A stretch of DNA of 63,553 nt, counting the filler, from Atractiella rhizophila (taxonomy: Eukaryota): assembly GCA_021432655.1 (NCBI GenBank). It is 3 parts of 3 records of this genome, joined end to end, with 100 filler letters (N's around TTAATTAATTAA, not from the genome) between each part and the next. Parts side by side here need not be neighbours in the genome. Positions count along the whole stretch, not along the records: positions 1 to 21,227 come from MU271773.1; 2 more parts are not named here. The stretch is one strand, 5' to 3'. Positions 3,694 through 49,099 of this stretch are shown piece by piece; position 1 is the first letter of the stretch, and every line of letters starts with the position of its first letter. The notes under the pieces were generated by a model, which saw only the letters and a program-made list of their open reading frames with translations, was not told the origin of the DNA and searched no databases. A program made the position numbers and the translations under genes.

Positions 3694-6409
3694 CTACGGC
3701 TTCCCGAAGCTCTTCTTCCGCTTTTGCAACGCGTCTATCATGCTTTTGAGGATCTTGCTAACATCGGCCTTCGGCGCACCAGCTTCACGATGTCTGCCTT
3801 CTGTCACATTGAGCCGAAGTGGTTGAGATACTTCCCAGAGTAGCGATAATACCTTCTTTCTGTCCCATCTCCATTCGACGTCGTAGCTACCTAGAAGCAC
3901 AGAGACGTCCGTGTTGAAGTCTCTTTGTGGAAGTTCAGAGCTGAGGAGATTACGTTTATTCACGAGGGCAGTTTGAGGATTGCCCTCCCAATCAGCGAGT
4001 GGATAGGAACCCTTAAGACGAAGTGGTTCGACACCGAAGATGAAAGAAGGTTCCTTGTTATCATAGATCCTCCCAGAGCCTTGCGCCATGGACGTCTCCA
4101 TAGTGGTCTGCAAAATTCGCTTTCTGAACGGTCCGATTTGTCCAGTCTTCTGGGGGACGAAATGGCAGAAAAAGTAAAATATGCAGAAAAGGACGGATTC
4201 GACGTCGTCAATAATAGTCTGTCGGTGTAAAGGTCGCACAGATTTTGGTGGTGGTGGGGGACACTTCATACCAGAGGATTCGCCGCTTTCCTCTACCACG
4301 TCGTCTTCACCCATGATGTCGTCCTCTTCGTTCGTGACGCTGACATTATCTATGACTGTATCTTTGCCATCGTTATCGTTATTGACATCGTCCATGATCG
4401 TGTCGTCATCACCAACCTCGTCGTTGCCTGTGTTGTACATGATGTCCCGGATTGCCTGCAGTGCACGTCGAGACAGAAAAATAAACGTTCCCTTGCGAAA
4501 CATGAGGAAAACCCTATTAACGTCGGATATTACTCACGGAGATCTCAACATGATGCTTTTTGTTACCGTCCTGTGTACCCTTACCAGAGCCAGTGTCCCC
4601 CGACTTGGGCATTTCGATTGAGAAATCAAAATCGTTTAACCAACCGAGAGTCGTGCCAGTTTCTTTTTGCCCAGGCGTCCATTCCCGCATGAAAATATTC
4701 GCATAGGAGACATCACGATGGGCGAAGTTGTGATCATTCAGAGTTGCTAACTCTGTAAGAAATCATCAGATACCGAGGTCACGGGTTAAGCGAAGGACTC
4801 ACGCCTGAGAACGCCAATGAAAGTATCCAGGACCTCCTCAAGGTTCGTTGCTGCTCCAAGAGGAAGGCCGATGGTAGAGTGTAAAATTAGAACAGGAACT
4901 AGCTCCTTCATCTGAATCTGCGGCTGTTTCTTCTTGTCCCAAAAAGCATATTCCTCGAATATCTTGCTCGTCGAGAACTGGGGAAATGAAAGCAGGACAC
5001 GGGGAGCGTGTTCGAGCCAGTCCCAGTATTGGCCCTGGCGATCCAGAGAACCTTCCTCGAGTTTCCTTCTCCACTCCTCAAAGCGCTTGACGGTCTTCTT
5101 CATCCTTCCGAGAAGAGTTTTGTCGAGCCATACATGCTTGATGACCCCGTATCCCTTCCCATCTAAAAATCTGCACGCCCAAACCTGTGTCCCGCTCCCC
5201 GTGATTGAGTACTTTTGGAATAGCCCCTCTGCCACGACGTTGGAGCGGAACCCGGTTCCCGTAACTTGGCAGCCGCTCAAACGTCCTTTCAGATCCAGTT
5301 TGAATCCCAGTTGTGCGGACGGTGGCAGGTTCGTTAGGGATGCTGACGGGGACATGGTTGATCCTGCGATCGAAAGTGACTCCTCAGAGGCTTGCGACGG
5401 TGATTCCTCAGAGGCTTGCGACGGTGATTCCTCAGAGGTTTGCGACGGTGACTCCTCAGAGGTTTGCGAAGGTGACTCCTCAGAGGTTTGCGACGGTGAT
5501 TCCTCAGAGGAAGATTCAGTCGGCGACACTTGAGAGGACTCCGCCGGGAGGTCCCAATTAAAAATCAACGTGCCGTCGTGATCGAAGATGTCGAGAAACC
5601 CGGTCTCCTTCTCGTCTCCTTTCACAAGGGTTTCCAAGTCCTCTAAAAACTCCTTAAAGTTCTTCTTCAGGTTCTGCATCTGGGATTGCCATCTGCCTCC
5701 ACGAGCATTAATGATCCAGCAGTACTTCTTGTTGTTGAGAGGTCCCTCGAGTAAAAGACCCCAGAAAAAAAGGCGAGGTCTCGCTGCCAGCGGATAGACG
5801 GCGCCACGGCCCAGCTGCCTTTTCCCCTTCGCGGCTTGGCTCTTTCGTCCAGTCTTTACTTCCACGCCACAAGCTGCGCTGGAGTACGCAGGTTTTGCCT
5901 CGAACTTGCAGGACGTCACCATTCCATCCATGTTGAGGGAATCCTTTTGGGTGACGTTGCCCCATAACTGCAACGATTCGTCCACTACGTGATATCTGAG
6001 TACCGAATTCGGCAAAACTTCCTGAAGACTTCGTCATGCTCTCTATCTTAAGAAATGGGGCAAGTTCACTTCAAGTTACCTCGTACATGCGCTTCATAAA
6101 GTCTTCGAGCGTCTGTTCATCCTCCCAATCCTCCTCACGAAACCTCTTCAATTCTTCGGAGAGCTGGGTATAGCTACCATTGAGCACCTTGGGGCGCAGA
6201 CCAGGGACTAGGATGGGAGGAGGTTCAGCCTGGACGCGACTATCGAACTGCAGATAGCGTGCTACGCGCTGAAAGATGCGAATCCGCTTGTTTGATGTGA
6301 ACCCAGACTCATCTGCCTTCCTCTTGTTAGAAGGAGTCGCGGGAGGCGCAGTCGTGACAAAAGTAGGAATCGGAGTGGTGTCTCTTTGTCCAGTGCCACC
6401 TTCTTCCAT
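3694..6409 (-). CDS. Fungal-type protein kinase (FunK1 / Pkinase_fungal), multi-exon
   Basis: Spliced reading gives VIKHVW, HRDVSYANIF (~4695-4720), LNDFDFS, GTFIFLS and DDVESVLF; GTGAGT donors near 4802 and 4538. Confidence 0.85.
5376..5510 (-). repeat. 24-bp coding tandem repeat (SEESPSQT/A, about 5 units) inside the kinase
   Basis: TCCTCAGAGG[CT]TTGCGA[CA]GGTGA[TC] units are visible on the + strand. Confidence 0.9.
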
Positions 6410-12040: not shown

Positions 12041-14289
12041 ATGCAACCTCTCACCACAACCCACCGTACTGAGATAGATGTTTATGTGCCCAGCATCAGC
12101 TATCCTAAGGCATATCGAGCGACTGAAAAGGAGGTGAGGGGGACATGGGTGTCTATGAACATAGAGGGGTTTATGGGGATGATTGAGAAGAGCAGTCCAA
12201 TAGCTGAGGCAGCACTTTCCGAGCTGATGAAAACACGCCAGCCAATCGTACTGCCAACTGCTGAGCCGCTGCAATACAACGTCGTAGTAAGTGCTGTGCT
12301 TTCTGCCGCTCACGGGAGTGGATTTCATAGATCGAATAGATCGATGCGATGAGCGGTTATTTGGATGATGGATGGCAGCAGGTCAATACATCTGCTCCAT
12401 CGACATCAACATCCCCAACGTCTTCGACGCGACTAGTGCCAAACCGGATATCCTTCTTTATTCGCCACCCAGACGGGGAGTCGACGGTCGAATGACGGAT
12501 ATGAAGGAAGCTGAATTGTTCTGGGAGTTTAAAAATGGTGTGCACCCGTTTCACGATGCTCCCAAAACGGAAACGCACAGGGGCATGGGCAAGGCGAATG
12601 CCGACGAACCTGACATCAAAAACGATGCCTTGCAAGCGGCGATGGGGAGGGACGAATACGAGGATACTCCAAGCGGCTTTGAGAATGGAGCCGACAGTGC
12701 GGTGGAACTTCGCGGTCGAATAACGCTTTATAACACTGTCATTCAAATCCTCCAACACAGGACTCGCGTCTTTTCCATCTATATCGATGGAAAAATAGCG
12801 CGCCTCCTTTGCCATTCTCGTGCAGGCACAGCCGTCACCCCTCCGTTCAATTACAACGAGGAACCCCATCTTCATAAATTTTTGTTTCGATACACTCGCT
12901 CTGCCAAAGCTCAACGAGGACATGACGATACGTACAGGAAACCCAGCAACCGTGTCGGGGAATTAAATGCAAGGAAGCGCCTTGGACTTGAGGGTGACGA
13001 TCCACTATACGTCGTGGAGTTCGATTCGACGAGCTACTACGTCTCGAAACCTTTCACCAACTTTCACGAATATCCCGTCGGTCGCAACACGAAATGTTTC
13101 TGTGCATACTGCCCTGGCCTTGACAGCCTTGTCCTTTTGAAGGATATATGGAGGAAGATGGAGTACGAAAAGGAAGGAGACACACTTCGAAAACTAAATC
13201 TTGCAAACGTCCCCAACATCCCAACTGTTCTTGATGACCGCGATATGGACGGCAGCTTCCAGATATCGCGGCACCGTGTCGCCAGGCCATGCAGCATTAT
13301 ATTCAGGTAACTGACAAGATTGGACGCCGCTTTCTTCATTCACGTCTAGCTGGGAAATGGTCAACGCAGTCTGTGATGCCATTCGAGGCCGATTCGAGGT
13401 ATGTTTCTGCCTTGTTGTTACTGGTTGTCTGACCCGAGCACAGCCCACGAAGCCGCATGGGAGAGGACGACGATTTTATACCGCGATATTTCATCAGGCA
13501 ATATCCTTATTTATGATCTACCATCAACATCTGATGATGAGCCAAGAACCTCCCAAGTGTTGAACCTGAGGTTCATCAGAGTGACAGAACGAAGAAAAGA
13601 TGAACCTCAGATAGCTGAAAACAGACTAAACTACGGGAGCGGGCGGAACTGACACCAGATGCGATAGCCAACTCGAGAGAACGAAAAGAACGTAAAGACG
13701 AAAACATAATAACTTCAACACCAAGGACTCTTGATTGATTGGGAAATGGCAAAAGTGGGCCTTTCCCAGGACTCCAGAACGCACTGTAAGATAATCCACC
13801 GGTTAATTGTGCAAGTCATTCAAACTGGTGACTGTTTAAGGCACCCATCAGTTCTTAGCTCTTGAACTCATGGGTCCAGATCACATCCCGCATGGACCTC
13901 GACACGACCTGGAATCGTTCATCTACGTCTTGTTTTGGATCACACTACGCCATGCTAGCACGTTGATGTCAGACTACAAAAGAACAGAGTTGCTCCGAAA
14001 TTTCGATCGGAAGAGTACGATGGCGGCCAGTTACGCGGCGAAATTGACTTTTCTGAAGTCCCCCACCCAAGTGTTACATCTTCGTCTGGATACGCCAGGG
14101 CTGCGCGATGTGCTCCAGTCAGTCTGGGGGCCCTTCCAAACTTACATGGATACAACCGAACTTGGAAATGAAGGCGACAGAAGCATCGTGACGCATTCTC
14201 ATCTCATCCTGAAGCTTGCATCCGGCCTTAGAGACGAGAAGTGGAAACGTACGAAGGATGCTGCAGTCGAGTACAAGGTGCAGAAGTGA
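12041..14289 (+). CDS. Second fungal-type protein kinase (FunK1); possibly disrupted between 13650 and 13715
   Basis: GRNTKCF, LLKDIWR, YRDISSGNILI, GLLIDWEMA, GTHQFLA and HDLESFIYVLFW. In-frame stops lie between the catalytic loop and the DWE motif unless an intron removes them. Confidence 0.8.
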
Positions 14290-14927: not shown

Positions 14928-16750
14928 TCACTGCTTGGCTCCTATACGACTCAACCGCTCTTTGTCCATCTTCACAGCACGCCTCCAAAGTTCCTCAGTC
15001 AGATGCTTCTCTCCCAGTGAAAGAGTGAGCAGTCTACGCCAACCGGGAAATCGGATCAGTGTATGAAGGGAAGGGAAGGGAAAGGAGCAGTGAGATGAAG
15101 CAAACCGCATAAGTGTGATACGTCTCCCTAGATCTCCCTCCACCACCTGCACAACGTTCTCCTTCCTCCATGCCGAGAAATCTGACGCAATTATCTGAGT
15201 CCCGGAAAGCCGTCAGCGTGTGCAGATGGTTTTCAGGTGGCTGACTTACTTCGCTTAGTGTCGGCGACAGTTCCACCTCTTTATCATTCGCGCTGCTGGA
15301 GAGATGCTGAATATAACCTCGAAGTCTGTCTAGGGACTCTCCGCTTCTAACCTCATGTTGCATCGGTGAATCGGAAGGTAAGACAGAAACAACAGCGTCT
15401 GTCTGGGCTACCCATTAATTTGCACTTGCCTGAGGACAAGGTGACACCTACAACAACGATCGGTGTCCCGTGCGAGAGCACAATGAACCCGATATCTGTG
15501 GGAAAAGAAAAGGATGAGAAAGGGAAGGTATAGTCCAGTTTTTGTTCTCTGACAGCAGTCTGAAGCGCGTGGAGATTCTTTAAACCTGTACCGTAACATG
15601 TCAACAAACCGTGTATGATTTCAGGAGAGGAAGGTGTGCCTCCTTCGTTCAGTGCCCCTTCAGACAAGTGCGTCATGTCCACGCCTACAATCTGGCCGTC
15701 TGGCACTTGCAATAAACCTTTTGTTAAGGAATCACCGTCGGAGATGGGAGAAAGTTTGATTGATGGATTGTTAAGATACCCAAGGGAGGTATGTAGCGTA
15801 AAGAAGCGCGGAAGAAGCTGAGCCAACGACTCGAATATAGGCGGGACGTGTGTTGTTGCGGTAGGGAGGGACAGTGCGATAGAAAGACGGCCGAGGGGTG
15901 GTGATCGAGTGTGTCTGAATACTCTGTCAGAGAATGATGCAAGGGAAGGGAGAGAAACTTGCATCCGACTTATGACGGAGAGGAGGAGCCATTCAGCCGC
16001 ATGTTGGTCGCCGCTTAGTCCGTCAGTCAAATACCTCAGGGTCTCTTCGCGCAGAGTCTCAAACTCTTCGGTGGCTGGTATTGGAAGTGACAAGTCGTCT
16101 AGAGGTTCCATGTATAAAACATGAACTGTCGGTAGCTTCTCGTCTCCATTCTGGGTGACGAGATAGTCTTCCATGTCGAGGGAGGCGAGGTGGTCTTCAA
16201 CTGATACACTGTTACCCCTTACCATGGAGGAGGGGTCTGAAGGTGGATAGAATATCCCTACGCATTGAAGTAGTGAAGTCGAACGTAGCGAGTTCGCGAG
16301 AGTAGGGTCATACAACTTCAAAATGTAGCGCGAGTATGATCTTTCTGTCTTCATTCCCAAGTTCTAATCCACAGGTAAAGAACTGAATACCATCATTCCA
16401 GAAAGGATATAGCGTACCTCGCGAATCCACCCACTATCAACGTCCTCAACGATAATCACGCTGCGTTCTTCCCACTCTGCCTGTTCAACATTTCCCCCAT
16501 CATCCTCAAGCTCTATCTTGTCAACATATCTAAAGCCAGTCGGTACGATTTCTTCACCCCTCGTCGTGTCGATCACCATACATCTCAGCCTCACCAAAGA
16601 AGCAGGCGGTGTGGTGTTATCAGCATAAGGCGGCGAGATTTGGAGGTCACAAAAGGAGGATGAAATGGAGAGGTGCGTCTGCGGATCAGGGAAGGAACGA
16701 ATGTACTCTAAAGGAGCACAGAGAGCAACTGATGACGGGGAGGGAGACAT
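14928..16750 (-). CDS. MCMBP: Mini-chromosome maintenance complex-binding protein (MCM-BP), multi-exon
   Basis: SLVRLRCMVIDT, GDQHAAEWLLL, GLLQVPDG..VDMTHLSEGALNE, LDYTFPFS, TLMRFASS...LTEELW. Confidence 0.85.
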
Positions 16751-16781
16751 TTCGATGAAGATGAAAGTGGTCGTTCCTACA

Positions 16782-16795
16782 CGCGACGCGTCGCG
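16782..16795. promoter_or_regulatory. MCB (ACGCGT) cell-cycle box within a 14-bp palindrome CGCGACGCGTCGCG upstream of MCM-BP
   Basis: Lies 32 bp upstream of the ATG at 16750; MCB boxes typify G1/S replication genes in fungi. Confidence 0.55.
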
Positions 16796-17062
16796 CCACT
16801 TAATCGACTGTCCTGAACTCAGGAAAATCACATGAAACAGGATTGGGGTGCAATACAGGGTGCAATGGGTTAAGATTTGACGACCGATGTCTCCCATCAG
16901 ACTGAACATTTCATGTTGGAAGCGAGAGCTTCCATAGCACCAATCATCGAAAGCCAATTTCAGCTAATATTCTTAGTTATTATTCCCTTAATGGTGATTT
17001 TTAGTTGTAAGGATCGAAACTACAAGAAAATACACGACCACCTCAAATCTCCTACTTCCTAC

Positions 17063-19067
17063 CTAAACAACATCTGAAATATTCACCCTATCCCAATCTC
17101 AATGTTATTGCACTGGGATCTAGCAGAGGGGAGGGCTTACGGCATCTCATCGATCTGAGTAGCGTAATATTGCTCAATGTCCCTCAAAATCTTCACGTCA
17201 TCCAAGGTGACAAACTAGTCCATTCTATCAATACATGCAAAGCCCGTGAGTTGAAAGACCAACGTTTATAGCAACACCTTTTCGTCCAAAACGTCCAGAA
17301 CGACCGATACGATGAATATAAGCTTCACGGTTGTTGGGCAGGTCATAGTTGATGACCAGCGACACTTGCTGGACATCGAGGCCCCTCGACCTAATCAGTC
17401 CCAACGAACCTTAGCTCCACTCTACGAAATGTTTGACGACAAACACGCACCAAACGTCGGTGGAGATGAGCACCCTCGAGTTACCCTGCCTGAACTCTCC
17501 CATGATAGCATCCCTCTCCGGCTGGGGCATGTCACCATGCATCGAAGCGACGGTGAAGTTGGCATCTCGCATCTTCTCGGCAAGCCAGTCGACCTTCTTC
17601 CGCGTGTTGCAGAAAATAACAGCTTGAGTAATCGTCAATGTGTCGTACAGATCGCAGAGCGTGTCAAATTTCCATTCCTCTTTGTCCACGGCTAGAACCA
17701 GCGAAGATCATAAACGTTGGTGTCAAAAGAGATGACGCACGTACCAACGAAGAATTGTTTAATTCCCTCGAGCGTCAACTCATCACGTTTCACCAATATC
17801 CTTATCGGGTCGGTCATGAACTTGTTCGTCATCTCCAACACATCGTAGGGAAGAGTAGCCGATAGAATAACGACCTGAGTTTGTGGAGGGAGATACCTAT
17901 GGACATTTGTCACTTTCGACACTTCCCAAGGGCATCAGAACGAACCTATAGACGTCGTACACCTGGTCCTTGAATCCTCGGTTCAAGAGCTCGTCCGCCT
18001 CATCCAGTACAAGCATCTTGATATTCCTCGTTCGAAGATGTCGGCGTTTGATCATGTCGAAGACGCGACCAGGAGTGCCAGAGACGACATGTTGCCCGTA
18101 GTCCAATTTGCGGATATCCTCGCCGATGGACGTGCCGCCGATGCAAGCATGGCATTGGACATTCTGGAGAGAAATACAGTCAGTTTCATTAAGCAATTGG
18201 CGCAGCTTCGCGGCAGGAATACAACTTGTAAAAGAACAAGGTGATTGGAAGGCGGAAACAGGGGGCGTTTATACTATCTTCACGTATCTGACCTAATACT
18301 GTTGAAGCCACCATCAGCTGTGAAGAGCAAGTAAATTGCTGCGTTTAGATGGCGGTGATACAACAACATTTCTTCAGGAGAAGCCAACAGGAATGAGATG
18401 CGGTTGTTCTACCGTTCAAGCAATGACAACTGATGCAGAAATAACAATTTGTTCGCCTTCTTTTCATGTGTCCAGAGCCTTCGTTTGAAAAATTAAGAAC
18501 TAGAAAGGGACCGTACGCCCACATTTGTTCATGTCAATTGTCCAGCATGGGATACTTCGTTGGAGAAAAGGGAAAGGGGTTTCCATCTGAGCATCTGAGC
18601 ATCAAAATTCGCCCATGAAAAGAAAGCTATTGGAGAAGCGGAAGAGCAAGAGAAGCGAACTCATTCGCAGGAGTAGATTGTTTGAGAAATGGCCACCCTA
18701 CATGGAAAGAGAGACGCACCATATAATCACCCAAAGCAAGCACTACACTCTGAATCTGGGTAGCCAGTTCCCTCGTGGGACTGAGCACCAGAGCTTGAGT
18801 CTCCCTGAGCTGGGTGTCTATGCTCTGCAAAATGCTAATGCTGAAAGTGGCAGTCTTTCCCGTCCCGCTCTGAGCCTGTGCGATGACATCGCGTCCCTTG
18901 GTGATGGGCAGGATGGCACGCTGTTGGATAGCTGAAGGCTTCTCGAAGTTGTATGCGTATATGCCTCTGAGCAGGTCGTCCTTCAATCCGAGCGAGTCGA
19001 AGGTGGGCGCAATTGTCACTGACTCGGAGGTCTCGAACTGGAGGCGTGCGTCGGTGCTGGGATCCAT
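17063..19067 (-). CDS. FAL1: DEAD-box helicase eIF4A-III / Fal1 (EJC core), multi-exon with a 556-nt first intron (18164-18719)
   Basis: [77 protein letters not shown]-terminal QIDEMPVNISDVV*. Confidence 0.96.
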
Positions 19068-19105
19068 CGTACTCGACAACTTGGAGGTTGCTGTTGGTTG
19101 CTGAA

Positions 19106-21227
19106 AAGTTAACCACGGTGGCCAAGGGGCTCAACCTTGCTTCAGGGGTCTGTTTCTTCCCGACAGCACCTGCTTCATAGCTTCGTTCTGTTACAAAGGC
19201 CCTTGTGAGTGCATTCTCATGACCATTAAATCTGCTTTACCGAGATCCTTATTTTTACATCACTTACTTTTTTTCCATTACATAGGTGAATAGCATGGCA
19301 ACTCCATCACACCCGTGAACTGCCTCAACCACATCTATCCTTGCGGGCCAGGGCCATCCAAGCCGCATCATATTCCATTTACGTGAACATATTGAAATTC
19401 TCACCGTCCTGAGGAAGCTCGAATAGTTGCGGCTCGAACTTCTGGACTAATCACAAATCACAGCTGTCAGTACGTTACGTTAGCAAACGACTGATACAAT
19501 CGAGGTCTCTTGAGGAATTCGAATACTTCTACGACTCAAAACCGGACGTCCCAATTACCCCGTCATTACCAACCTTCGAGCATAGACGCCGCCTGAGAAC
19601 GTAACATTAGGTGGAGGTCTGCCTCCCACTCCGAGGGCGAGGGAGAGCGCCGTCGGACCAACGTGCGACATCGAATATGTTAGAATTCTATGCCACCTCT
19701 AACGACTTCTTCATGGACTCTGACAAAGCTCTCCTCTTGCTGGCGGACGTGTTGTCGATTCGGTCCACCGGTTACTCTGCATTGCACGAAGCTAGTTTGG
19801 TACGAAGTGGAAACGTGATTCGTACACCTTCAGCAGGAAAGACACAACAACAAGAGTAAATCCTGGGTAATCGATGACGCATCAATGGCTTTTCGATGGG
19901 AGCCGATATTCACATTTGTCCTGCAGAACTCCTACCGCCCCTCTCCCTTCCTCTCTTGCATCGACATGCCAATCACTCGTGCTCATTTAGTGGCAGTATA
20001 CAAGTTGTAGACGCGGATACGGTGCTCAGTCGGCGCAACCTCCTCATGATGCTTTGTACAAAGTAATTCCATGTATCTTCCTCGCTCCTGGATGTTGGGA
20101 TGTTGGATTGGTCAACATAGCATTGGACTTGCTTGTAAGTGCGCGGTCAACTCTCTGTTACATTCGACCAAAGTTTTTAACCTTTCAAACCTTGTTAGAC
20201 GTTAGTAGGCCACCTCTACCCAAAGCAGAGCTGATGTCAAAGTTCCTAGTTCGAGTTTCGGACTCAAACAACGTGGACAATGTTTTTTCAGTGCTGAAAA
20301 GTTGGGTTCTATAATATATAGTCTGAAAATCGAGGCGGAAACTTCCTCCTTCATTTTTCATACAATAGGAATCAGTCAAAAACTGGTGTAGTCTAAAGAC
20401 TTCGAAGTGGATACCTGATACGCTAGACGAAAACTTAAAGACGTTGAATGAGCTAGAGCCGTTTGAGATCTTGTAAAAGTCCACTGTCTTGCTCCTCTCC
20501 TTCCTGGGGCATGTGAGTTAGGTGGCAAGGTTGAAGTCAACTGCTTGTAAAACTTCAACTAACCCGTCTTAAGAACTCCAACCGTTCGTATTGCGAGTAG
20601 CTACACAAAGTTCGGGGGTAAAAAACACTCTGGAACCTGGCTAATGGTTTGGATTGCCCAAACGTAGAGTAGTCGACGAAAGGGAAGTGTAAGGCTATAG
20701 TTCTTATAACCGGTGCAGATCTCGTCGAATGAGACTCCAAAAAGGGAGAGCGAACCAAACTGTCTGATGTTAAGTCCTGGAAAGCAACCTCCTTGGTAAC
20801 TACGAAAGATTGAAGGGTTTAGACTGAAGCGACCTGTAACTACCGCCAGTGCTTGTGTCGTTACAAGAGAGTAGATTGAAGAAAGTAGTTCAGGTTGACA
20901 GGTTTCACTCACTTGAAGACGTATTTTACCACAGTAAGACACCGAAAAACTGCCTAAACATTTGAAAGAACTACGAAATTTAAGCTTTCTTAGTAGCGTT
21001 AAAGTGGAGGTCTATAAGATACCCGTTACCCTACTACCGCTATGGCTCTTCCGCCGTTTCTTCGTTCCTCGTCTACCTACCGTAAGGAAATGTAAACTTT
21101 TGAAAACTTTGTCTACCCTCTTGTCCCTCTTATATGAGTAAACTCGAGGTTCTTGGTTCACGTCAACTTTACCATATACTTCTTCAAGACATGAAACTCG
21201 CTTTTCCGAGTGAAAACTTAATGTATT
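19106..21227. other. 'Mirror' segment: reads as a frameshifted F-box/LRR-like gene only when complemented without reversal
   Basis: The complement-only text gives an open frame at 20436-20801 with LDRLPNLTGLHLISC and WPRLEQLTLR, FPNLTSLDID at 20813, and GCTGAC...TAG at 19488-19501. Confidence 0.85.
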
Positions 21228-21327
21228 NNNNNNNNNNNNNNNNNNNNNNNNNNNNNNNNNNNNNNNNNNNNTTAATTAATTAANNNNNNNNNNNNNNNNN
21301 NNNNNNNNNNNNNNNNNNNNNNNNNNN
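21228..21327. other. Scaffold gap with artificial TTAATTAATTAA linker (44 N + 12 + 44 N)
   Basis: Linker at 21272-21283 gives stops in all six frames; the identical construct occurs at 46746-46845. Confidence 0.97.
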
Positions 21328-21816
21328 CAGTAAGAAAGGCTGTTAATGCAGAAGCAACGCTCTCTTTGCTGTAAGGTAGACTAGGCTTTGGGAGCTTATT
21401 CCAAGCATTCGAGCCTGAAGCAACAGGACTACAATAACGAAACATGAAACCTTGAATAGGACTCTACTAGTCCAACAAGCGAACGATAAAGATCACTCAC
21501 TTGCAAAAGACAGATAAATCGCCCGCTCAGGCTGGACTAGCTTTGCTTGCCAATACAAAAAGCACCTCTGCAGCGAGAAAGATCACAGAAGCGCCTGCTC
21601 GTTTCGATGACGTTTTAGAGGCTCCAAGCTTCCTAGCTTTTAAGGGTATTACAGCATATCCCTTCCTGCGTTGAGGAGCAACGACAGCGACGCGACAGAC
21701 GTATTTCTCTTCCGGGTTTGGGTGCCGATGGATTCCGCGTAAATGGAGCGGCATCCTCCCCCCTTCTCCTCCCGCACTCAGATGATACCAGATCCACGAC
21801 GGAGTCGGAGGTTACC

Positions 21817-22808
21817 ATGGGGGAGAAGAACTCGGACCTGCTCCTGCTCCTCCTCTCGGACTCTAACCTCCCGACCGGGGGCTTCATCTCCTCTTCCGGC
21901 CTGGAGTCCTTCACACACCACGGCATGCTCTCCCCTTCCTCCTCCTCGGCAGCTGGCAGTGCTGGTTCCGGGAAGACATTGGAAGAACGCACGGTGGCGT
22001 TTTGGGAGAACGCGGTGGTGGCGTATGCGAACCAAGGTCTGTGGTTCTTGATCGAAGCTCATAGGACCTTGGAGGGTATGAACTCGAAGCGAGGTGAGAG
22101 GGCTTTAGTGTTAGAGAAGATATTGGAGTTGGACAGGCGATACGATACCATTTTGATGAACGACGTGACGCGTCGGACGCGTGCTCAGGGTTTGGCTCAT
22201 CTGGTGTTGTTTGAGAAATGCTTCGTGGTGCCGGAGATGAAGATGGATGGCGAGAAGGTGCAGGTGTTGAAAGAGTTCAAGAACGCGGCGAGGAGGGGTG
22301 AATGTCATGCCCACCAACCCATCGCATTTGGGATACTTTGTGCAGCATTAGGCATCTCGTCCAGTAAGAACTATCCTCCCGTTGGAAGTAAGATTGAGAG
22401 TTTTTGCTGCGTGAACTATAGAAAGGACGCAATACCTCCACCTCTTCCTCTACTCCCGCTCGTTGGTCCTCCCTTCCTTTTCTCTGCCCTTCGTCTTCTA
22501 GAACATCTCATCAAACATTCCTTCGAATGAATAGCATCCTATCCGCCGCCGTCCGCCTCAACCTCATCGGTCCCTACGCTTCCCAACGCATCCTGGTAAC
22601 ACGTGGAGACGATGTCATAACCCGCGCTCTATCGTCGACCGAAAAGCTCTCCTCCCTTGCATCATCGTCAAGTCAGAGGAGCGACGCTGCGCCTACGAAA
22701 GCGGAAGTGATGCTGAATGGATTGAAGAATTCTGCAACGACTAATCCTTTGATGGAGATCTTGAGTGGCAGGCATGACGTTGTGCATAGTCGAATGTTCA
22801 ATTCTTAG
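21817..22808 (+). CDS. ureF: Urease accessory protein UreF
   Basis: LLLSDSNLPTGGFISSSGLES, HQPIAFG, SILSAAVRLNLIGP, EILSGRHDVVHSRMFNS*. Confidence 0.93.
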
Positions 22809-24535: not shown

Positions 24536-26226
24536 ATGAAGGCCATCACTCTTCTCTCCGTTTTAGGCCAAGTCGCCTTGTTGACCCTCAACGCTAATGG
24601 TTCGCCCTTTCTCCTTTTTCATTGATCTTGTGAACTTATTTTGAGGTTCAAAGCTCATCCTGGAGAGGAGCACGAAGTGTTAACGCCTTACGAACTTGCG
24701 AAACGCTATGCGGCGAGAGACCTTAGGCACAACAAGGCGAAGAGATGCGCTCCGCACATTGCTAGGTTCGAGTCTGCGAGGAAGGCGAAACGGTCGCTGC
24801 AGTTGAAAAAGAGGCAGGACGTCGCTACTGCTACCGCTTCGGCAGTTACTCCTCATTATACTACGATCCAAAACAGTAAGTCTTTTCATTAGCTCCTTTT
24901 GCCCAAAATACTGAGGTAACATTCAGCCACTTGTGTCACCGCCCCTGAGGTCACAGAAGGTACGTAGCCAAATCATGCGTGGCTCCATGTTCAATTACCA
25001 TGCTTCAGGTCCATATTACGTGGGTATTGATTTTCTGTTTAATCAACTTGATTAATTGAAAGATAGGTNNNNNNNNNNNNNNNNNNNNNNNNNNNNNNNN
25101 NNNNNNTAAATTGAAAGATAGGTGAACAACGAGCTCATTCGTCAAGACATTCGGGACGAACAACCAGGTTTACCTCTAATTTTGGACCTTGGAATAATGT
25201 TTGTTTTTCTCCATTGTTGTACCAATCTCTGACCTTTGCCTAAAGGGATACGACAACTTGCTCTCCTTTGAGTGACGCTCTTGTGGAACTGTGGCACTGC
25301 AATACGGTAAGGCTACACATTTTAACATACAGAGCCTTGCTTACAGAGTCTCAAACAGACTGGATACTATGCAGGTTGGGTTCTACTCTTCATATTTTCT
25401 ACGCACTCACCATTTTCTCAGGCTTTACTGGACTCACCTCTACTACGCCCGGAGGCGACGACGGTGCTCCTGGAGATATTCCTGGAAATGGAACTGCCCC
25501 AGGGAACGGAACTGGACCACCTCCCGGAGGACCAGGTGGATCTCAAGCTATGACTGATCAGGAGACGTTCCTGCGTGGGGCTTGGGTCACTGGTGGCGGC
25601 GGAGTGGTTGAGATGACTTCCGTCTACCCTGGTTTGTCTTCGTATCTACTTCTACTTCCCATATTTACAAGGAATGTTTGCAGGCTACTACACTGGGAGG
25701 ACCGCGCACATCCATTTGATGGTTCACACCAACTATACTGTCAACTCTAATGGCACTATTTCTTCCCACGCTGGTGCGTCTTAGGAATCCCTTTTCCTGG
25801 AATTCTTGTTTACTCTTTGATGCAGGCACGCTTCTCCACATTGGTCAATTGTTCTTCGACGACGCTGTTAATGATCAAGTTTTCGCACTGTCACCATACA
25901 ACACCAGTCAGCAAAGCAGGACGCGCAACGACGAAGATGGTATTCTTTCGCAGCAGAACGTATGTCTCTTCCACAATCTCGTCTGGACCATCTCATATCA
26001 CATACAGAGTGATGGATATTCCGGATTTGTCTCCTTGGAACAAATCGATCCGAACTCCATTGAAGCTGGATTCTATGGATACCTGACCGTCGGTGTTGAC
26101 ACTTCAGCGGATCAGACAATTGCGTCGACTAATTATGCGTCTGGAATTCCTGAAGACCTCCTACTTTCTGCTTCAAGCGCTTGGAGCGAATTTCAAGAAA
26201 CTGCAGAGGCTTCTCCAACTGCCTGA
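24536..26226 (+). CDS. Secreted intradiol ring-cleavage dioxygenase-like protein, many short exons
   Basis: Signal-like N-terminus, CVTAPEVTEGPYY, RQDIRDEQPGLPL, VELWHCN, TFLRG, YPGYYTGRTAHIH, HIGQLFFD; TATA-like ATATAAG at ~24441. Confidence 0.9.
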
Positions 26227-26559: not shown

Positions 26560-28623
26560 CTATGCGAGCTGCCCTCCAAACTTGCCTTGCTTCGGTTCGC
26601 TCCTCCTCCTGATCCAGTACCACATTGTCAGCCCGCCTTTGTCCCCTTTTGACTCACTCCTCCTCCTACTCCAATAGGTCATAGTCAACCTGCTTACAGG
26701 GAGACGTCTCCATGCTTGTTCCATTGCCGAAACCAGGTTATAAATTGCCATTGTCCATCGGTAATCAGTGGGCAAAGGCAACTTTCTGGCCTCACAGTGT
26801 TTCTCAATCATGACTTTCGCCCTACAGTAGAACTCCGCAAGCCTTGCGGTCCTATTGAGGAAGGGGAAATGCTGATGTTGTTCGTCCAGCTTCCAATAGC
26901 AGGGAGGAATGCTACGTGGAGAAATTGCGAGATGGGCTTGCAGGACCTGCCAATCGAAGTCTCGGCGGGGAATGGGTAGGATGTAATTTGCACGCTCGTT
27001 CCAGGCGATCGGTGTTGCGAAAACTGATTCTGTCCAGTCAAGATCTTTAAGAGGAGAGGGAACCACGATAGAGAGATGAGGAGGTTTCTTGAGTTTGTAC
27101 AAAGCCGTGATTGGCTTGTAGAGGTTGTCCAGAGCTTGTTCTCCAGTGAAGTGATCAGTGGGGGGCGGAGAGTCAGTGTTTGAACCTGCTGGCGAAACTG
27201 CTTCCCTGCGACGGGAACGTTTCACAGCTTGTCCTTCTTCAGCACTGTCGTCCGATGAAATCTTCCGCTTGTTAGGTCGCACTACTGGCAGGACAGGTTC
27301 CTCAGATTTCCTAAGGCGTTTGGATATTTGATCGGAGTAGGAAGACAACACATTGACGAATTTTTTTCGTTTATTCGTTCGATCCGGAAGTTCTGTTTGC
27401 TGTTCGGTGGGTATTTCTTTTCTGGGCACAGACGACACCGGGGTCCGTGTTGATGCTGTAGGCTTTGGACGTTGCTGCATTATTTTTGGCTGTACTGGTG
27501 GAAAGGCAAAATCATCGAAGTCGACAGCGACAGTTTGGTCACCCCAAGATGGCTGGGCCACTTTGCAGGCGTCTTCTCCTAAAATTTCCGAAATTAAGTT
27601 AAAATATCCCAGTTTCATTAACCAGCCCCAATGTCTCGTTGCGAGTTGCTGCTGTGCCCAATCTTTCCTTTGTTTGTCGAACGACCGTTTAAGAAAGCTG
27701 GCTGAAAAAGCAGATGGGCGTTGAAGAAAAACGATGCGGAGACTGCGGTCGTTCAGCACGGCGTTGGTATTTATCAACATATCGTTGGCGGGTTTGGAGA
27801 TGTTGTCAAAGAGATGCGATTTTGCGTGCGAAAATTTGGACGAGATGATATTCAGCTTCGAGAAAGGAGCCTGCTCGAACTCGTGACGGAAAAATTCTTT
27901 CAAACCCCAAAAAAACACTGTCACAGTCTCGGACTGCTAACGATGCGGTTCCTTGAAGGGGCTCCCTGGCTAAATTTTGCACGAGAACATCAGTCGCTAC
28001 TGGACCGTCGATGCTGAGTTCGTGAAGGGTGAGAATTTGTGAGATGTTGTCGATGTTTATTGGGCGGGAAGATACTGCAGAGGGATCGTGAATGGCATTT
28101 AATGAAACAACACTTGGGTTGAGGAAGTAATGAAAGTTGAGAAAAGATTCAATCTGCGCCTGAGGGCGGAGAGATAGATTTTCGAGGGTGAGACTGGATG
28201 GCCAAACGGGAACATCGTCGATGTTGTTGCGAGACCAAGGGGCGTAGAACCTGGTGAGGAATTCGTCGATTTCGCCTTCCTTGACTGGGCCTGGGAGGTC
28301 CCCTTCTTCATACCCCACGATCGTCAAATCTACGAATTGTCGCAGTTGGTATGTTCCGTTCACCGTTCGTTCTACAAATAATCCCTTTACTACGGTTTAC
28401 CGACCTGGGCAATAAACTTACCGGGTTTAGTGACCCAGTCCATCACTTTGACACCTATCTTCACTGAGTCCTCTGTCCACCCTTGAGATGCAGTTAATTC
28501 TTGTATGCGCGCGACAATCTCCTTTACAGGATAGTTGATAGTGTCGAGGGTACCAAATGAGAGTGAAATGTGAGGATTGTTGTCAAAATGGCGAAGAATG
28601 TGTCTAAAAAATTCATAATTCAT
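26560..28623 (-). CDS. Uncharacterised lineage-specific protein, about 3 exons, with basic NLS-like stretches
   Basis: Consecutive long minus-strand ORFs (28390-28722, 27806-28363, 26560-27924) separated by intron-sized gaps; no recognised domain. Confidence 0.6.
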
Positions 28624-30354: not shown

Positions 30355-33300
30355 ATGTCTAGTCCCAATATACTCTCCACTCGCAAGCCCGTCCCTTCTT
30401 ACCAGCATAATCCTCAGCATCCCGAGCATTCCCTCCAGCAGCCTCTCCAGAACCCAACATACCCAAGTCCAAGCCCCAACGGCCATCCAGGCGAGTACGT
30501 CGACTCCTGGCTCCGCTCGCTCTCCCATCCTATACTGCCTCAAATAAATACCTCCGTCTCTCATTCCAACGTCACTGCAGAAAGGGAGGGATTGGTCAAG
30601 AGCGGTAGTTTGAAGATCACGAGTGCAGTGGGAGAGATAGGGTATTGGGACGATTTTTCGGCACAAGGAGTGCCCACAGCACGCCAATCTAGTGGTATGT
30701 CCTTTCCGTGCTCTCTTACGTGTTGTGCGTCTAGCGAATGGATGGGGAGTGATTAAGTTTTCGTACGTGCTGCGTGTAGAAGTTGAACGTTCGGCACCAG
30801 AAGGAGGAAAACAACCAAATCACCATCACGTTGGAGGAGAGGACGAGTCTCCTGCCTCTCAACACTCCATCAGACATTCTAAAAAGTCATCCGACGCGCC
30901 ATCCGACTTTGTCCTATATCCTCGTTCCGCTAGCAACCCAAACGTCATCGTGCCATCCGACAACAATTTTGGTGATTCTAGACCTCGGAAGTTGTCAAAG
31001 ACGCGCAGAGAACCTCATATTCTGCCCTCCACGCGCCGAGACGCTTCAGCAGTGAAAGAGAAGGAGAAGGAGAAGAAGCCTGGGAAGAAAGGGAAGAAGA
31101 AGGTAGAGGAGGGAATTAGAACTCCGTCGGTTTATTCGTACGAAGGATACGACGCCGACGGCGGATTCGACGAGCCCTCGCTTTCTCCCACTTCTCCAGA
31201 GGCTGAACGATTCGCTCTCGGAAGAGGAGGAGGGATCACGAGTTTGCCAAACGAACATCTCTCCTCGAGCTTGGGGCACGGAGGATTGCAAGAGTTTGCA
31301 GCGAAAGAGCGCCAGAATAGAGACGAACAGTTCATCACCCCTCCGCCACAGACAGCTTTCCCCGTTACCCACCAGCTCCCACACCAACTGCCTCCTCAAC
31401 CACCTCGTCAGGCCTCCCCTCCGCAACCACCACCACCACAACCTGCAAACGTCTTCTCACCCTCCACATCCGCCTCTTCCCGGCTCCCCACCAACAGCAC
31501 CAACCTCGCTCGTGCACCTTCTCTGAGGAGATCGAGGAGCCGAACATCCTCTGCCCCATCTTCCATCTTCCTTCGCGGCCTCACGACAGGGAGGGAGAAC
31601 GACCCAGAGCTTCTAAGAGAGCTAGAACAGGCGCAGGAAGAGGATAGGGCTGATTTAGAAGAGAGCTTCAAGAAGGAAAGGGAGAGAAGGAACACTTTTA
31701 CCGCAGCTGGAGGTGTCGGACCAGGGCCGTTCTACCACAAAGAGTTTACTACGCTGAAGGGAAAGGAGAGGGAGAGAAGCAATACGAACCAGACAGCGGA
31801 AAGCTCTCAATCGGAAGGCGTATTCTTCACCCCTAACGAGCTGACGCAAACGCATTCTACTGTCGATTCCAATAACGAGGAACCGAGATCCATCTCCAAC
31901 ATAAACGCCACTTTCAATATTCAACCTTCCAAGATCCCGGTACCGCACAAGAAGAGGAGAAGCACCTACGTTGAACCGACTTCTATCGATATACCTGTCA
32001 TCCCACAGGCCCGACCAAACAAATTGCACAAGAAATCTCGCTCAAGAGATCATCTCCCCACGCCCGTCACCGCAACAACCAACCTCACTTCGAGCAACAA
32101 CAGAGATTCCACAGCTCTTCAATCCACCGTCAATCCCTTCCCAATAGATATCCAAGAGACGCCGGTGCTCTCATCACACCCTCTTCAAAATCAGAACCAG
32201 AACCAAGACAGAATGTCATACCAATTCAACCGCAACCGCGGCGACTCCGACACCGTCACAGGCGGCGGCTTGATGCATGCAAACCAATCCTCACTCGACA
32301 GATCGAATTCGGGTTCGAAGCAACTACCACCTCTGGGCGCGAAAGCAACGATTGGGATGACGCGGGGAAAGAATATCCAGCAGGCGCAAGCGAGTTGGGG
32401 CGTGTTGGGGAAGGGAGAAAAGGAACAAGAATATCAGACTTATCATGCAGGAAGCGAGGAGGAGCATGGATTTGCTGACCATGATATTGACGACGAGGAG
32501 AGCGAGGATGATCATGAACTTGAGGGACCGGATGGACCGACGGAGGCAGCTATGTATCAGAGAATGGTCCAGCAGGGTCAAGCGCCGGGAATGGGGATGG
32601 GCGTGGGGAGGATCGATGAGCAGACGGAGCCGTCGACTGTGGAGGGTGGAATGGGAGGTGGAGGTGGTGGTGGTGGTGGCAAGGGGAGAGGGTTGGCGAG
32701 TCCCTTCGATCTGAGACCTGGAGAAGATGAGCAGCATCAACACAAGCCAGCACCCCATCCTTACAACTTTGGAAATGGCAGTTACGACGAACAGCGACTT
32801 GTAAGTCGCAATCATCAACCCCATCAAGTCCCTGCTCCAGTCGTATACCGTCCTCAAACGGATCCCTTCCCCCCAGCCCGCTCGCCCGTACGCGCTCTTC
32901 CAGAACCACCTCGTTCATCCCAAGCATTCCCTTCACATCCAGATCCCGGACCTTCCAACGGTAACAATCTTAATAATTCCACGGGAAGACAGTCTCACCC
33001 TCCTCTGTCTGAACCACCGCGTCCTAGACGCCTCTCCGACGGTTCCGCTCCCCCTGGCGCCAATGTGGGCAAAGCCGCAGCTGCGTTCGGACCGGCTCAG
33101 CAAGGGAAGGAGTATAAAAAGGATATTTTGTTGAGACAGCTCTACGATAGAGCTAAATCAGAGGCGGAAGGGAGAATGGTGGAGAGACAGAAGAGGTATC
33201 TGTTAAAGAAGGAACTGGACGGTGCTCTCGCTGAGGTATACTTCCATCACCCCGGTACCAAGTGGAGATGTTGATGTTGCTTTTGCTGGATGGTAGATCG

Positions 33301-42776: not shown

Positions 42777-44334
42777 AAGAGAAGATCACGGCAACCTACC
42801 AATCATCTTTTCCTTCTCCTCACCAACGTCCTCCTTCACTCCTTCCAACCTACTCTTCTTCCTCAACATCGGCTTCCTCCCCTCTTTTTCTCTCTCCCTC
42901 CGAGTTTGAAGATGTGGTAGTGGCGAACTGGACAAGTTCTCCTTATCGAGCCACTCCCTCACTCCCCACCTCCGGCTCCGTCACGTCAGAANNNNNNNNN
43001 NNNNNNNNNNNNNNNNGAAAACACCTCCTCGCTCATCCACCGTCTCCTCTTCCCCTCGTTCCCTCTCCCCTCATCCTCGTCCTCCTCACCCTCCTCCTCC
43101 GCTCTCCTCTTTCTCCTCCGCGGCGTCACCGCCACGTCCATTCCAACTCGATCAATCTTGCGCTGGGGATTCGAAGGCGGAGGTGAAGGTGGAAGCGGAA
43201 ACCTGAACTCCTCCAGACTCCGAAACAGCTCGTTCTCCCTCACCCGAAACGATGTCCCAAGAACCGAGACGCAAAACCCGACTTCATGAGGCTTCAACCT
43301 CCTCCCGCTCCTCCGGAGCGCTTCCGCCTCCTTCTTCTGCTGTTTCGCCCACGACCTGTGCAGGACTGCAGGTTCGAGGTTAGGTGGAGGAGGCGGGGGA
43401 CGGGGGAGGAATGGGATGGGGGTGGAGGGATGGATGGAGAGGAGGATGGGTGGGAGGGTGTTGAGGTTGGTGTAGAGGAGGGGAGTGTAACAGTCTCCGA
43501 TTAGAGTGAGGGATTTGAGTTTGGAGAGAACGAGGGGGACCGCGTCTACGGTCAGGGTTCCTGCCTTTTCTGCGGCGTTCTGAAGACTGTTATGAGGGTG
43601 ACGCTGAGGATGAGGATGGGGTTGAGAGGTCTGTTCGATCCGAAGATGTCTGATGGAGGATTTAAGGAGCGTCCGGCTGAAGAACCGAGTGAGGTCTCGT
43701 CCCCTTCGCATCTGCAGGTTCCGGAGAGTGACAGTTTCTGGATACACTCGCACGTCGTGCCAGTGCTGTCTCGTCCAGGGAAGATATAGCGTTGCCAAAG
43801 CTTCGTCCAAGGCTTCAGCTGAAGGGGGAACAGAAGCGGGAAAGCTTTCGTCTCGGCCTTCGATCAAGAGGTTTGCTGGTTGAAAATCCCATTCAGTGCT
43901 CTTCCCTGTGTCAGAGATCAGCGAACGAAAGAATGAGAAAGATTGAAAACGGACTGGGATCTTCTCTCCTACTCTCGTCCTCCAACTTGATCCTCAAACG
44001 AGCCTGATCCCAACTCCACCCCGTCTTTCCCTCATCATCCAACTCCACCATCTTCTCCCAAACCACATCCGCCCTCTCCTTCATCCGTCTCACCGAAAAA
44101 GGACCATACTTCTTCTCACCATAAGTGTAGGTGAGATGAGGATCGTTGGAGAAGATATCGAGCATCTTGAGCAGGAAATCATTGTTCATGGGTATATTCG
44201 AAACCGACTTAAAGGAGGCGCGCTGCACGAGGGAGTGTGTGCGAGAGCTCATACGCTTTTGAAGGAGGTTGGGCACACTTTGGAGAATGGACAAGGTGGA
44301 GGGGGCCTGTGGGCGTGCAGTTAGCGCATTCAAG
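42777..44334 (-). CDS. Uncharacterised protein spanning a 25-N gap (42992-43016)
   Basis: ORFs 43911-44357 and 42986-43867 with an intron between them; reading continues past the gap to a stop near 42777. The start codon is uncertain. Confidence 0.55.
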
Positions 44335-46135: not shown

Positions 46136-47276
46136 ATGGAGGGGTCGAGGAGGGCCTCGATCATGCGCATGAGGAGGTATGTCTTTCCGAATCGTTGATG
46201 CCATACGACTGCTGATATTTGCTTGCACAGCTCTTCAAAGTCGTACCCGAAGTCTCAGTCGCCCATCTTGCTTACACACTGCTCAGTGCTTTCACCGTCT
46301 TCTTCGGCATGTTCAGGTACATATATCCCCTATCTCCAGTATTCCTTTTACTGATGCGGACTTTAGTGCATTGGTGAAGGAACGACTCTTCTTTGGAGAG
46401 CCGATCATCGCCACTGGCCTCGGAATCGTATTCTCAGAAACTGTAGCCGACATCTTTTCACCGAGAACATGGAACGGAGGGGGCGACTTCAACGAAGTCA
46501 CATTAGAAATCATGCGCATCGTTATCGCCCTATCGGTGTTTGCTGTCGGAGTGGAACTGCCAAAAAGTTATGTGCTGAAGCATTGGAAGAGCTTGTCCAT
46601 CCTCTTAGGCCCAAAGTGCGCCGTCCCTCCCCTCCCCCAAGCTGAAGACATGGTTGATGATGCTGATGAGAGCAGCATGCTGTTCGGATGGATGGTCTCT
46701 GGCGCGCTCATCTATGTCATCATCCCCAAATTGACCTTCCTCGAANNNNNNNNNNNNNNNNNNNNNNNNNNNNNNNNNNNNNNNNNNNNTTAATTAATTA
46801 ANNNNNNNNNNNNNNNNNNNNNNNNNNNNNNNNNNNNNNNNNNNNTTCTTTCCCGCGGTTTCCAGTTCGCAGACGGTAATCGCCCGCTAACTGTTCGCTT
46901 TTTACCATCAACATTTCTTTGTCGATAACGTTAGTTTCAGTTGCATTTGACTGTCATGAACACATCGTACCGCCGCACACCTCGTCCAGCAGGGAAGCCA
47001 GCGCGAAATCGAAACAAGAAGCGCCTGCCATTCGATCCTATTCCTTTCCTCCACCCTACTCCAGATGCAACTGTGACTACCGACGTGTCGGACGATGTCA
47101 AAGCAGAGGGAATGGTCGTGGTGGATGGTAATTTCGGTGGACCTGGTGTGGATAGTGAGCTTGGAGAACACGTTATTGAGAGCGTGCAGATCTGTGCGAT
47201 GGGGAGTAGAGATGAGCAAGGGCGATACATTGCCCTCGAGACAGTGAGCCTGAAGGAAATGAATGAACAGGCTTAA
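46136..47276 (+). CDS. CPA1-family Na+/H+ antiporter (Nha1/Sod2-like); middle lost in the assembly gap
   Basis: FGMFSALVKERLFFGEPIIAT, RIVIALSVFAVGVELPKSYVLKHWKSL..LLGP.MLFGW. A hydrophilic tail after the gap is tentatively assigned to the same gene. Confidence 0.85.
46746..46845. other. Scaffold gap with TTAATTAATTAA linker
   Basis: 44 N + linker (46790-46801) + 44 N. Confidence 0.97.
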
Positions 47277-47653
47277 TGCATACATCCTCACTAATTCATG
47301 ATCAGACTAAACGTTGCCGCCACTTGATATCAATTTACTGTAAACGGACAATCAATTAATCATCATTGTGGTGTCATACCCTCGTTCTCGTTACACTCGT
47401 TATTCTCGTCTCGTCTCACACGACTCGCTCACCGTACATGGGAGATTACGGGGAAGACCTGTTATTTACGGTACATTTGTGCCTACTTCAATCCACCACC
47501 TTCTCGGTTTTCTACCAGTGGGTTGTGCTATGGCCAAGTTCTGAGCAAAGATCTGGAGAACAACGCCGTAAGTTACAGCCTTGGATCCCACACGTGCACC
47601 TCTCTTCCCAGTGCTACGGTGAACTGACGCTGCCTATTAGCTTATTCCCTACC

Positions 47654-49099
47654 ATGACAATTTTGAGCCAAATGCAATGTTTTTCGTTTCAATCGCTGCC
47701 TATCGAGCTTCAGACGGAAGTTGTCGATGAGCTTGCAGTGCTGGAGCCCCATCGCCAAACACTTATTTCTACGAGCCGAGTCAATCGCGGGCTCAGGAAG
47801 CTTTCTATCCGCGTCCTTTTCAAAAGTATTTATCTGTCTAATTCCCGGTATAACCCAACAAACAATCACAGATGGCGGGTTGATTTCTCGACGCCTCTAG
47901 ATGACCTTCCTCTGTCATACTTGTCCTACATTCAGATTGTTCACATCAATCTGCATGAAGACATCTGCCTCGATGAGGATTCTAGATATCCTGTTGGTGA
48001 CGATTCTGATGGACGTCCCGTTCCTTTAATGCAATTAGTGGATCTAGCCATTTGCTTTCGAGATGTAACCACCAACTGCCATTCTCTTAAGGAGGTCTTT
48101 ATTCATCTTAAGTTTAAGGAAGGGATCGATTCACATGGAACAGCGTCAGCCAACTACTCGGGGCTTGTAACGACTGACTTCAGCTCCCTTGTTGACCAAA
48201 CCAAGTTTTGCGTCAATAAAATCCGACTTGGCTTTCATGTACACTTCAGTTATTCAGATTTTGATTGGATGGAATCACATACGAGAATCGAGGTTGCACT
48301 CCGTAGGATGACCCGGCCAGACATGATTACAAGCATCGAATGTCATTCCGGCTTCACAGCGGAGTTTGTTTTGCAATCGTTACTGTCATTGCCAGCGGTC
48401 GAGCAACTTTCTTTGGGTACTTGCAGCATCCCGGTTCTCGTGTCGCCGGCACAAACCAGCCTTCGTCATCTAAGCATTGATGCTGGATGGACCGACTTGT
48501 GTTTTGGCCATTATCCGGGGGATGTGGAGTGGGAGTGCTCTTTCAGTCTTGTCAGAACTTTTGCTGCCACTTTACAAAGCGTGCGCATACGCCACTACTT
48601 TGGACTTCGCGAAGGACTACATCGCGAGCACCCACCTTTCCAGTATCCCAACCTAAAACGATTCCACATATGCTACATTCAGCCTGAGTCTCAGCGAGAA
48701 AAGGAATGGTCTGCAGATGTTAAGGAATACCTACTTGATCAGTTGCGGCTCATAATAGGCGAGTTTTGCGTGTGCCCTTTGGAGGTTTTTGGGTTTTCGG
48801 AAAGCTATTCGTTTGATGCACGAGCTTCGGCAGGACTTTGGATTCTACCTACGGCTTCTGCGGAGAATGAGGAAGAATTCCAAGCGCCAGTTGCCTCGAA
48901 CCGTTCTGAAACTACTCCGGCTTTTGTTGCTTACTTCATTGCGAAGAAGAGGAAGGAAGGTTACCTCATGAATATCAAACGAGTGGATCTTGGACAGTCT
49001 ACTTTCGATTGCTTGACCAGAACAACACAAGGAGTCATGTACTCGGGCGAATTGGCAAAACTAGGAATTGTGACTAGGAGGGGGTGTCGTGAGGAATAG
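47654..49099 (+). CDS. F-box protein with degenerate LRR-like C-terminus, single exon
   Basis: FQSLPIELQTEVVDEL...SRVNRGLRKLSIRVLFKSIYL; LPAVEQLSL, SLRHLSI, YPNLKRFHI. Confidence 0.8.
   Translation: MTILSQMQCFSFQSLPIELQTEVVDELAVLEPHRQTLISTSRVNRGLRKLSIRVLFKSIYLSNSRYNPTNNHRWRVDFSTPLDDLPLSYLSYIQIVHINLHEDICLDEDSRYPVGDDSDGRPVPLMQLVDLAICFRDVTTNCHSLKEVFIHLKFKEGIDSHGTASANYSGLVTTDFSSLVDQTKFCVNKIRLGFHVHFSYSDFDWMESHTRIEVALRRMTRPDMITSIECHSGFTAEFVLQSLLSLPAVEQLSLGTCSIPVLVSPAQTSLRHLSIDAGWTDLCFGHYPGDVEWECSFSLVRTFAATLQSVRIRHYFGLREGLHREHPPFQYPNLKRFHICYIQPESQREKEWSADVKEYLLDQLRLIIGEFCVCPLEVFGFSESYSFDARASAGLWILPTASAENEEEFQAPVASNRSETTPAFVAYFIAKKRKEGYLMNIKRVDLGQSTFDCLTRTTQGVMYSGELAKLGIVTRRGCREE

Follow-up and report, generated by a model that had tools for sequence, protein, structure and literature searches.

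The window analysed here, a stretch of 63,553 nucleotides of Atractiella rhizophila DNA (GCA_021432655.1, filler included), was found to contain a contig tail of 1,059 bases, at positions 20169–21227 (no strand assigned), which is written in reverse order without having been complemented. The evidence comes from contigs of public sequencing runs, from the polarity of the text under Markov models and from its TA/AT ratio. The tail is almost certainly an artefact of string handling in the assembly, that is, reverse-only text and not a real biological feature. It meets the preceding DNA at a false junction, 20168–20169 (also without strand), which carries no N gap and is placed by the breaks of the contigs and by a flip in polarity; the true neighbour of base 20168 is the letter stored at 21227. 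The real plus strand would read positions 1 to 20168 and then the stored letters in descending order from 21227 to 20169, and the true minus strand, in the 5' to 3' direction, is obtained when 20169–21227 is complemented without reversal.

A sequence-only reading had proposed a 'mirror' segment over the whole of 19106–21227, in which the true text would appear on complementing without reversing, and had attributed it to an assembly or finishing bug that flipped strand polarity beside a gap and not to biology. Both the attribution and the way of recovering the text were borne out, the latter for the tail at 20169–21227 only: contigs match the text when it is reversed without complementing, and the k-mer polarity is inverted. 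As for the extent of the segment, its right half (20169–21227) stands, while 19106–20168 is correctly written.

The tail ends at a seam, since 21227 is the base directly before a linker of the form N44-TTAATTAATTAA-N44. On reading of the sequence, this linker occupies 21228–21327 and places stops in all six reading frames; an identical copy, N44 plus TTAATTAATTAA plus N44, recurs at 46746–46845 (neither is assigned a strand), and plain N runs are present at 25069–25106 and 42992–43016. A longer separator, NNNNNCATTCCATTCATTAATTAATTAATGAATGAATGNNNNN, which contains the 12-mer TTAATTAATTAA, has served for joining contigs into a pseudochromosome (10.1101/2023.02.08.527609). The N-flanked core is common to the window and to this separator. 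However, the published string is longer in the available portion of that source, whereas here the 12-mer stands by itself between two N44 runs. The window, a pseudomolecule, joins at least three pieces end to end, so that gene adjacency across the linkers (for example between the hidden text of the tail and UreF at 21637–22805) is not established.

Pfam analysis of the long ORFs of the window identified Pkinase_fungal, MCM_bind, DEAD, UreF, FYVE and Ribosomal_L17 domains, and the window is fungal-type nuclear DNA. The Pkinase_fungal ORFs lie at 4789–6033 (minus strand), 12369–13307 (plus strand) and 13840–14286 (plus strand), with E-values from 6.6e-06 to 2.6e-12, so that a fungal kinase family has at least two copies or fragments within 10 kb. 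Long frames for which Pfam gave no family at E ≤ 0.001 lie at 30641–33271 (plus strand, 877 aa), 47360–49096 (plus strand, 579 aa) and 26563–27936 (minus strand, 458 aa).

Contigs and composition across the tail

Five public sequencing runs matched a query of 16000–21227, and the contigs of four of these (X1, X2, X3 and X5, with X1 and X2 being one sample) were compared with the window. The X1, X2 and X5 contigs match the window at about 99%, a difference of ~1%, and the compared runs may derive from another strain than that of the assembly. As the X5 contigs skip the introns of the gene FAL1, whose ends are GT..AG when read on the minus strand, this run is probably RNA. X1 and X2 have depth in all bins over 16000–20199; X3 covers the FAL1 exons only and its share is small, as is that of X4, the fifth run. 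The shares of words present in the runs (0.61, 0.50, and 0.42) could reflect a missing fifth together with strain differences and are not decisive.

The text as given is matched by X1, X2 and X5 up to 20168, and all three break at this base. Past it, the contigs of these runs carry at least 255 letters unlike the window, with one identical loose end of 30 letters. When the window is read in reverse from 21227 without complementing, this loose end agrees with it at 28 of 30 positions. Elsewhere, the highest ungapped match is 18/30 on the plus strand, 20/30 on the minus strand and 19/30 in the complemented window; across four 63-kb readings, chance gives 20/30 at best. It follows from the match at 21227 that the real DNA runs from 20168 to 21227 and then backwards. 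Beyond these first 30 letters, the evidence for reversal over the full length of 1,059 bases is purely compositional. As written, 20200–21227 has zero cover in all four compared runs, which was not counted as evidence. The comparison of the contigs revealed no strand-changing joint, and an exact scan of metagenome contigs for the 30-letter loose end gave 0 matches.

When both strands are pooled, complement-only or reverse-only text has each k-mer swapped for its reversal. Because every pooled k-mer of mirrored text is reversed in this way, polarity was scored by comparing the likelihood of the text as written with that of the text reversed, using strand-symmetric Markov models trained on the rest of the window (leave-one-out). 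Over the whole of 19106–21227 the reversed reading was better by 15–27 log units. With order 3 models and 500-bp windows, the z values for 20001–21250 were 2.5, 3.4, 5.1, and 6.4, which were reached by 0 of 239 outside windows. For 19001–20250 the corresponding values were 0.8–1.0, a level reached in 36 to 49 of those 239 windows, and the scores there lie ~3 sd under the value for reversed DNA. The 1-kb windows of the tail scored +19.0 and +31.7 compared with −20.8 ± 7.5 for normal DNA, a size which fits fully reversed DNA. The flip occurs at the junction, with a z of −0.27 for 19769–20168 and 3.48 for 20169–20568. The breakpoint was estimated at 20168/20169 from the contigs and at 20128 from the lowest point of the cumulative Markov score, these estimates being at most 40 bases apart.

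Simple ratios gave the same picture. Over 55 control tiles TA/AT ranges from 0.36 to 0.93 and GAT/TAG from 0.72 to 7.0. In 20169–21227 TA/AT reaches 1.88 and GAT/TAG falls to 0.35, while both ratios are normal in 19106–20168 (0.74 and 1.58, respectively). The enrichment of TAG-type over GAT-type words that had been described for the whole segment is present in 20169–21227 and absent from 19106–20168. The ratio of TCG to GCT, which had also been put forward as a marker, does not discriminate (1.21 compared with a tile median of 1.17).

Weak polarity anomalies were also observed in 400-bp windows elsewhere, namely at 1–400 (z 2.59, reached by 2 of 149 null windows), at 24669–25068, adjoining an N38 gap (z 2.28, 3 of 149), and at 21328–21727, adjoining the linker (z 2.16, 4 of 149). 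These could be short reversed contig ends or low-information intergenic DNA.

The region upstream of FAL1

The X1 and X2 contigs, a polarity z of about 1 and the ratios given above identify 19106–20168 (no strand assigned) as ordinary, correctly written DNA upstream of FAL1. This gene, which encodes a DEAD-box helicase of the FAL1/eIF4A-III type, lies at 17087–19070 on the minus strand and was identified by the Pfam DEAD domain and the X5 and X3 contigs. Its exon 1 is at 18720–19070 (minus strand; Pfam DEAD E-value 4.6e-19). The introns skipped by the X5 and X3 contigs, with CT..AC ends on the plus strand, are at 17087–17139, 17215–17263, 17389–17448, 17692–17744, and 17895–17943, and the same contigs define a long intron at 18164–18719 on the minus strand. 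In the neighbouring MCM_bind gene, also on the minus strand, the X5 and X3 contigs indicate an intron at 16364–16417 with GT..AG ends.

It had been suggested that polarity switches at 19106, some 40 bp upstream of the ATG of FAL1, and that the true promoter has been replaced. Neither suggestion survived the comparison, as contigs of X1 (18717–19418) and X2 (18717–19430) tile straight across 19106 with only single-letter differences and small indels; around 19106, their departures from the window are single letters and a deletion of 10 bases at 19086. FAL1 and its promoter are intact and untouched by the artefact. Two details read from the complemented text of this region, the peptide YVQHLRL near 20000 and a 'branch point' with acceptor at 19488–19501, fall inside DNA of normal polarity and are attributable to chance.

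Other indels in the contigs comprise 13 bases at 19277, 14 at 19559 and 6 at 19632, in addition to the 10 at 19086, and at 19430–19512 a block of 81 bases is swapped for 67 other letters in the X1, X2 and X5 contigs. From these contig sequences, the intergenic region upstream of FAL1 appears to be variable between strains. The depth of X5 over 19106–20168 is 9–72, compared with about 10 in the long FAL1 intron.

Alternative explanations and related systems

In favour of the whole of 19106–21227 being complement-only, with the promoter of FAL1 replaced by a switch some 40 bp upstream of its ATG, complemented text left of 20168 also gives protein-like frames, e.g., a 70-aa frame with YVQHLRL; the polarity of 19001–20250 is also slightly over the normal mean (z about 0.8–1.0). 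This extended version is nevertheless very unlikely, as the X1 and X2 contigs follow the window as written over 18717–19418/19430 and on to 20168, the TA/AT and GAT/TAG ratios of 19106–20168 are those of normal DNA, and its scores stay well under the level for reversed DNA. A real strain-specific insertion or divergent region, with the 28/30 match being coincidental, would be in keeping with the ~1% difference between the compared runs and the window, with the several indels, including the replacement of the 81-nt block by 67 letters at 19430–19512, and with the lack of cover of 20200–21227 in every run. Yet the match starts at exactly the predicted letter, 21227, and is far above chance, and a k-mer polarity inverted relative to all 55 tiles is seen nowhere else in the window, which leaves this explanation a slimmer prospect still.

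Inversions of real DNA are common events and the breakpoint here is sharp, as it would be if the tail had been truly inverted in the sequenced strain. The loose end, however, matches the minus strand at no more than 20/30 and no joint changes strand. Moreover, a biological inversion is a reverse complement and leaves strand-symmetric polarity unchanged, and for this reason it is excluded by the inverted polarity of the tail; it is hardly credible as an explanation. Least credible of all, to the point of being negligible, is that the 1-kb text is real as written in the strain, as polarity-inverted DNA produced by a 'swinger'-type A<->T + C<->G exchange or by parallel-strand or 3'-to-5' synthesis. 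We know of no established mechanism for polarity-inverted DNA. A small literature, in so far as it is represented by the accessible parts of these sources, does propose such 'swinger' nucleic acids (PMC4942731, PMC7027195), and applying A<->T + C<->G to the true minus strand yields exactly the tail as written; against this, the segment closes a contig next to an artificial linker, and three contig sets derived from reads carry the untransformed text. Reverse-only text produced by the assembly is therefore the preferred explanation.

Two slips could have produced it. A piece extending the contig from the opposite strand may have been complemented and never reversed before joining (the classic 'tr/ACGT/TGCA/ without reverse' error), or an extension into the gap on the same strand may have been saved back to front. 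Both give identical text and are indistinguishable from the sequence, and the location, where a contig ends at an artificial linker, suits them alike. We infer that one of the two occurred; the reversal of the text is itself an observation.

The tail resembles the orientation errors of draft assemblies in its position at a contig end by a linker, its sharp break without an N gap and the fact that contigs of relatives stop at one base. It differs in that the usual mis-oriented contig is a reverse complement, which is still alignable and has readable genes, whereas the tail is reversed only, aligns to nothing and is meaningless on both real strands. Reverse-only text is rarer than mis-oriented contigs and more damaging. 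A full-text literature search found no description of such text as an assembly artefact, and phrases of the type 'reversed but not complemented' referred, among the matches listed, to designed control sequences or other topics.

'Swinger' sequences have been proposed as the products of systematic nucleotide exchange by Seligmann and co-workers, with 23 exchange rules, in the portions of their work available (PMC4942731, PMC7027195). The likeness lies in the tail corresponding to the true minus strand under A<->T + C<->G in the same direction, the assignment of this rule having been made here. The claims in those portions concern RNAs, ESTs and short mitochondrial inserts (PMC4942731, PMC7027195), whereas a contig tail beside a linker points to a text error, and the context of the tail gives the 'swinger' hypothesis no support. 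Mirror repeats and H-DNA share with the tail a text that is mirror-symmetric to another sequence, but they need both arms in one molecule and the window is without an un-reversed copy. A mirror repeat was rejected as a candidate, with blastn and tblastx of complemented 18500–21227 against the window giving nothing at E < 0.8.

The hidden text and its meaning

Complementing the tail without reversal does yield the frame described in the sequence-only reading, a stretch of 121 aa at 20436–20801 (open over 20436–20798; corrected coordinates 20960–20598, minus strand) with FCETLDRLPNLTGLHLISC and YWPRLEQLTLR, and containing LTGLHLISC and LEQLTL. FPNLTSLDID is likewise present, starting at 20813. 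The statement that neither real strand holds a recognisable gene was also confirmed, in that 0 of 10 ORFs in 19106–21227 had a Pfam family at E ≤ 0.001, one of them giving a sub-threshold match at E 0.058. The open frame said to run into the gap in fact reaches the junction at 20168 and ends 7 bases beyond, at 20161 in corrected coordinates. In the true minus-strand reading, it is the 5' end that faces the assembly gap and the 3' end that runs into 20168. ORF length was discarded as evidence, the mirrored frame of 121 aa comparing with chance frames of 136, 110, and 107 aa on the real strands.

Leucine-rich repeat (LRR) proteins consist of tandem units with an LxxLxLxxN/C core in one frame. 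The true minus reading contains LxxLxL-type motifs (LTGLHLISC, LEQLTL and LTSLDI), spaced about 22–35 residues apart, and two strict cores of the form L..L.L..[NC], compared with a maximum of one among 110 real tile strands. Such motifs and cores are the likeness to fungal LRR and F-box-LRR proteins. In contrast to these, only one of the two strict cores lies within an open frame of at least 45 aa (the 121-aa frame), the open pieces of the true minus strand are in three frames with three frame switches, and no F-box was seen in this reading. Two relaxed LRR patterns were not enriched, their counts being reached by 20 and 10 of the 110 null strands. There was also no codon-usage signal, the best log-odds segment being 3.8 compared with 3.3 for the as-given strands and a real-tile median of 10.3, with flat profiles in all four readings. 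Introns with the full fungal consensus GTRNGY...CTRAY...AG numbered 0 on the corrected minus strand, and the 53 loose GT..AG candidates are too permissive for a gene model without homology.

Homology searches with tblastx, using the tail and the left half both as given and mirrored (four queries), gave 0 matches at E ≤ 1e-3 against 80 metagenome FAL1 loci; these loci encode FAL1 relatives with a best identity of 87%, and there is no close relative among them. No match at E ≤ 1e-3 was obtained against the window itself for the as-given or the un-mirrored version. The X5 contigs cross the 20168 junction at a depth of 15–72, compared with about 10 in the long FAL1 intron, and because they do so at low depth the region at the junction may be weakly transcribed. 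The sequence-only reading had proposed a frameshifted F-box/LRR gene here. An LRR-like gene or pseudogene may lie in the hidden text, at slightly less than even confidence, its motifs giving weak support; its 5' part would run into the assembly gap.

The biological weight of the finding is small, as the error belongs to a public assembly and not to the organism. Should a script bug be the cause, the tails of other contigs in this assembly may also be affected, and the tail is a quality-control flag for this assembly. Segments of this type are found from sequence by the Markov polarity score or by plain TA/AT, with the breakpoint placed within ~40 bp, and the polarity score could serve as a cheap check of assembly quality. 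In the deposited record of A. rhizophila, roughly 1 kb of real sequence cannot be read, and it may include an LRR-like gene. Since reverse-only text aligns to nothing, annotation pipelines will miss or misannotate it, and anything encoded on the true minus strand at 20169–21227 is invisible to annotation of the deposited sequence.
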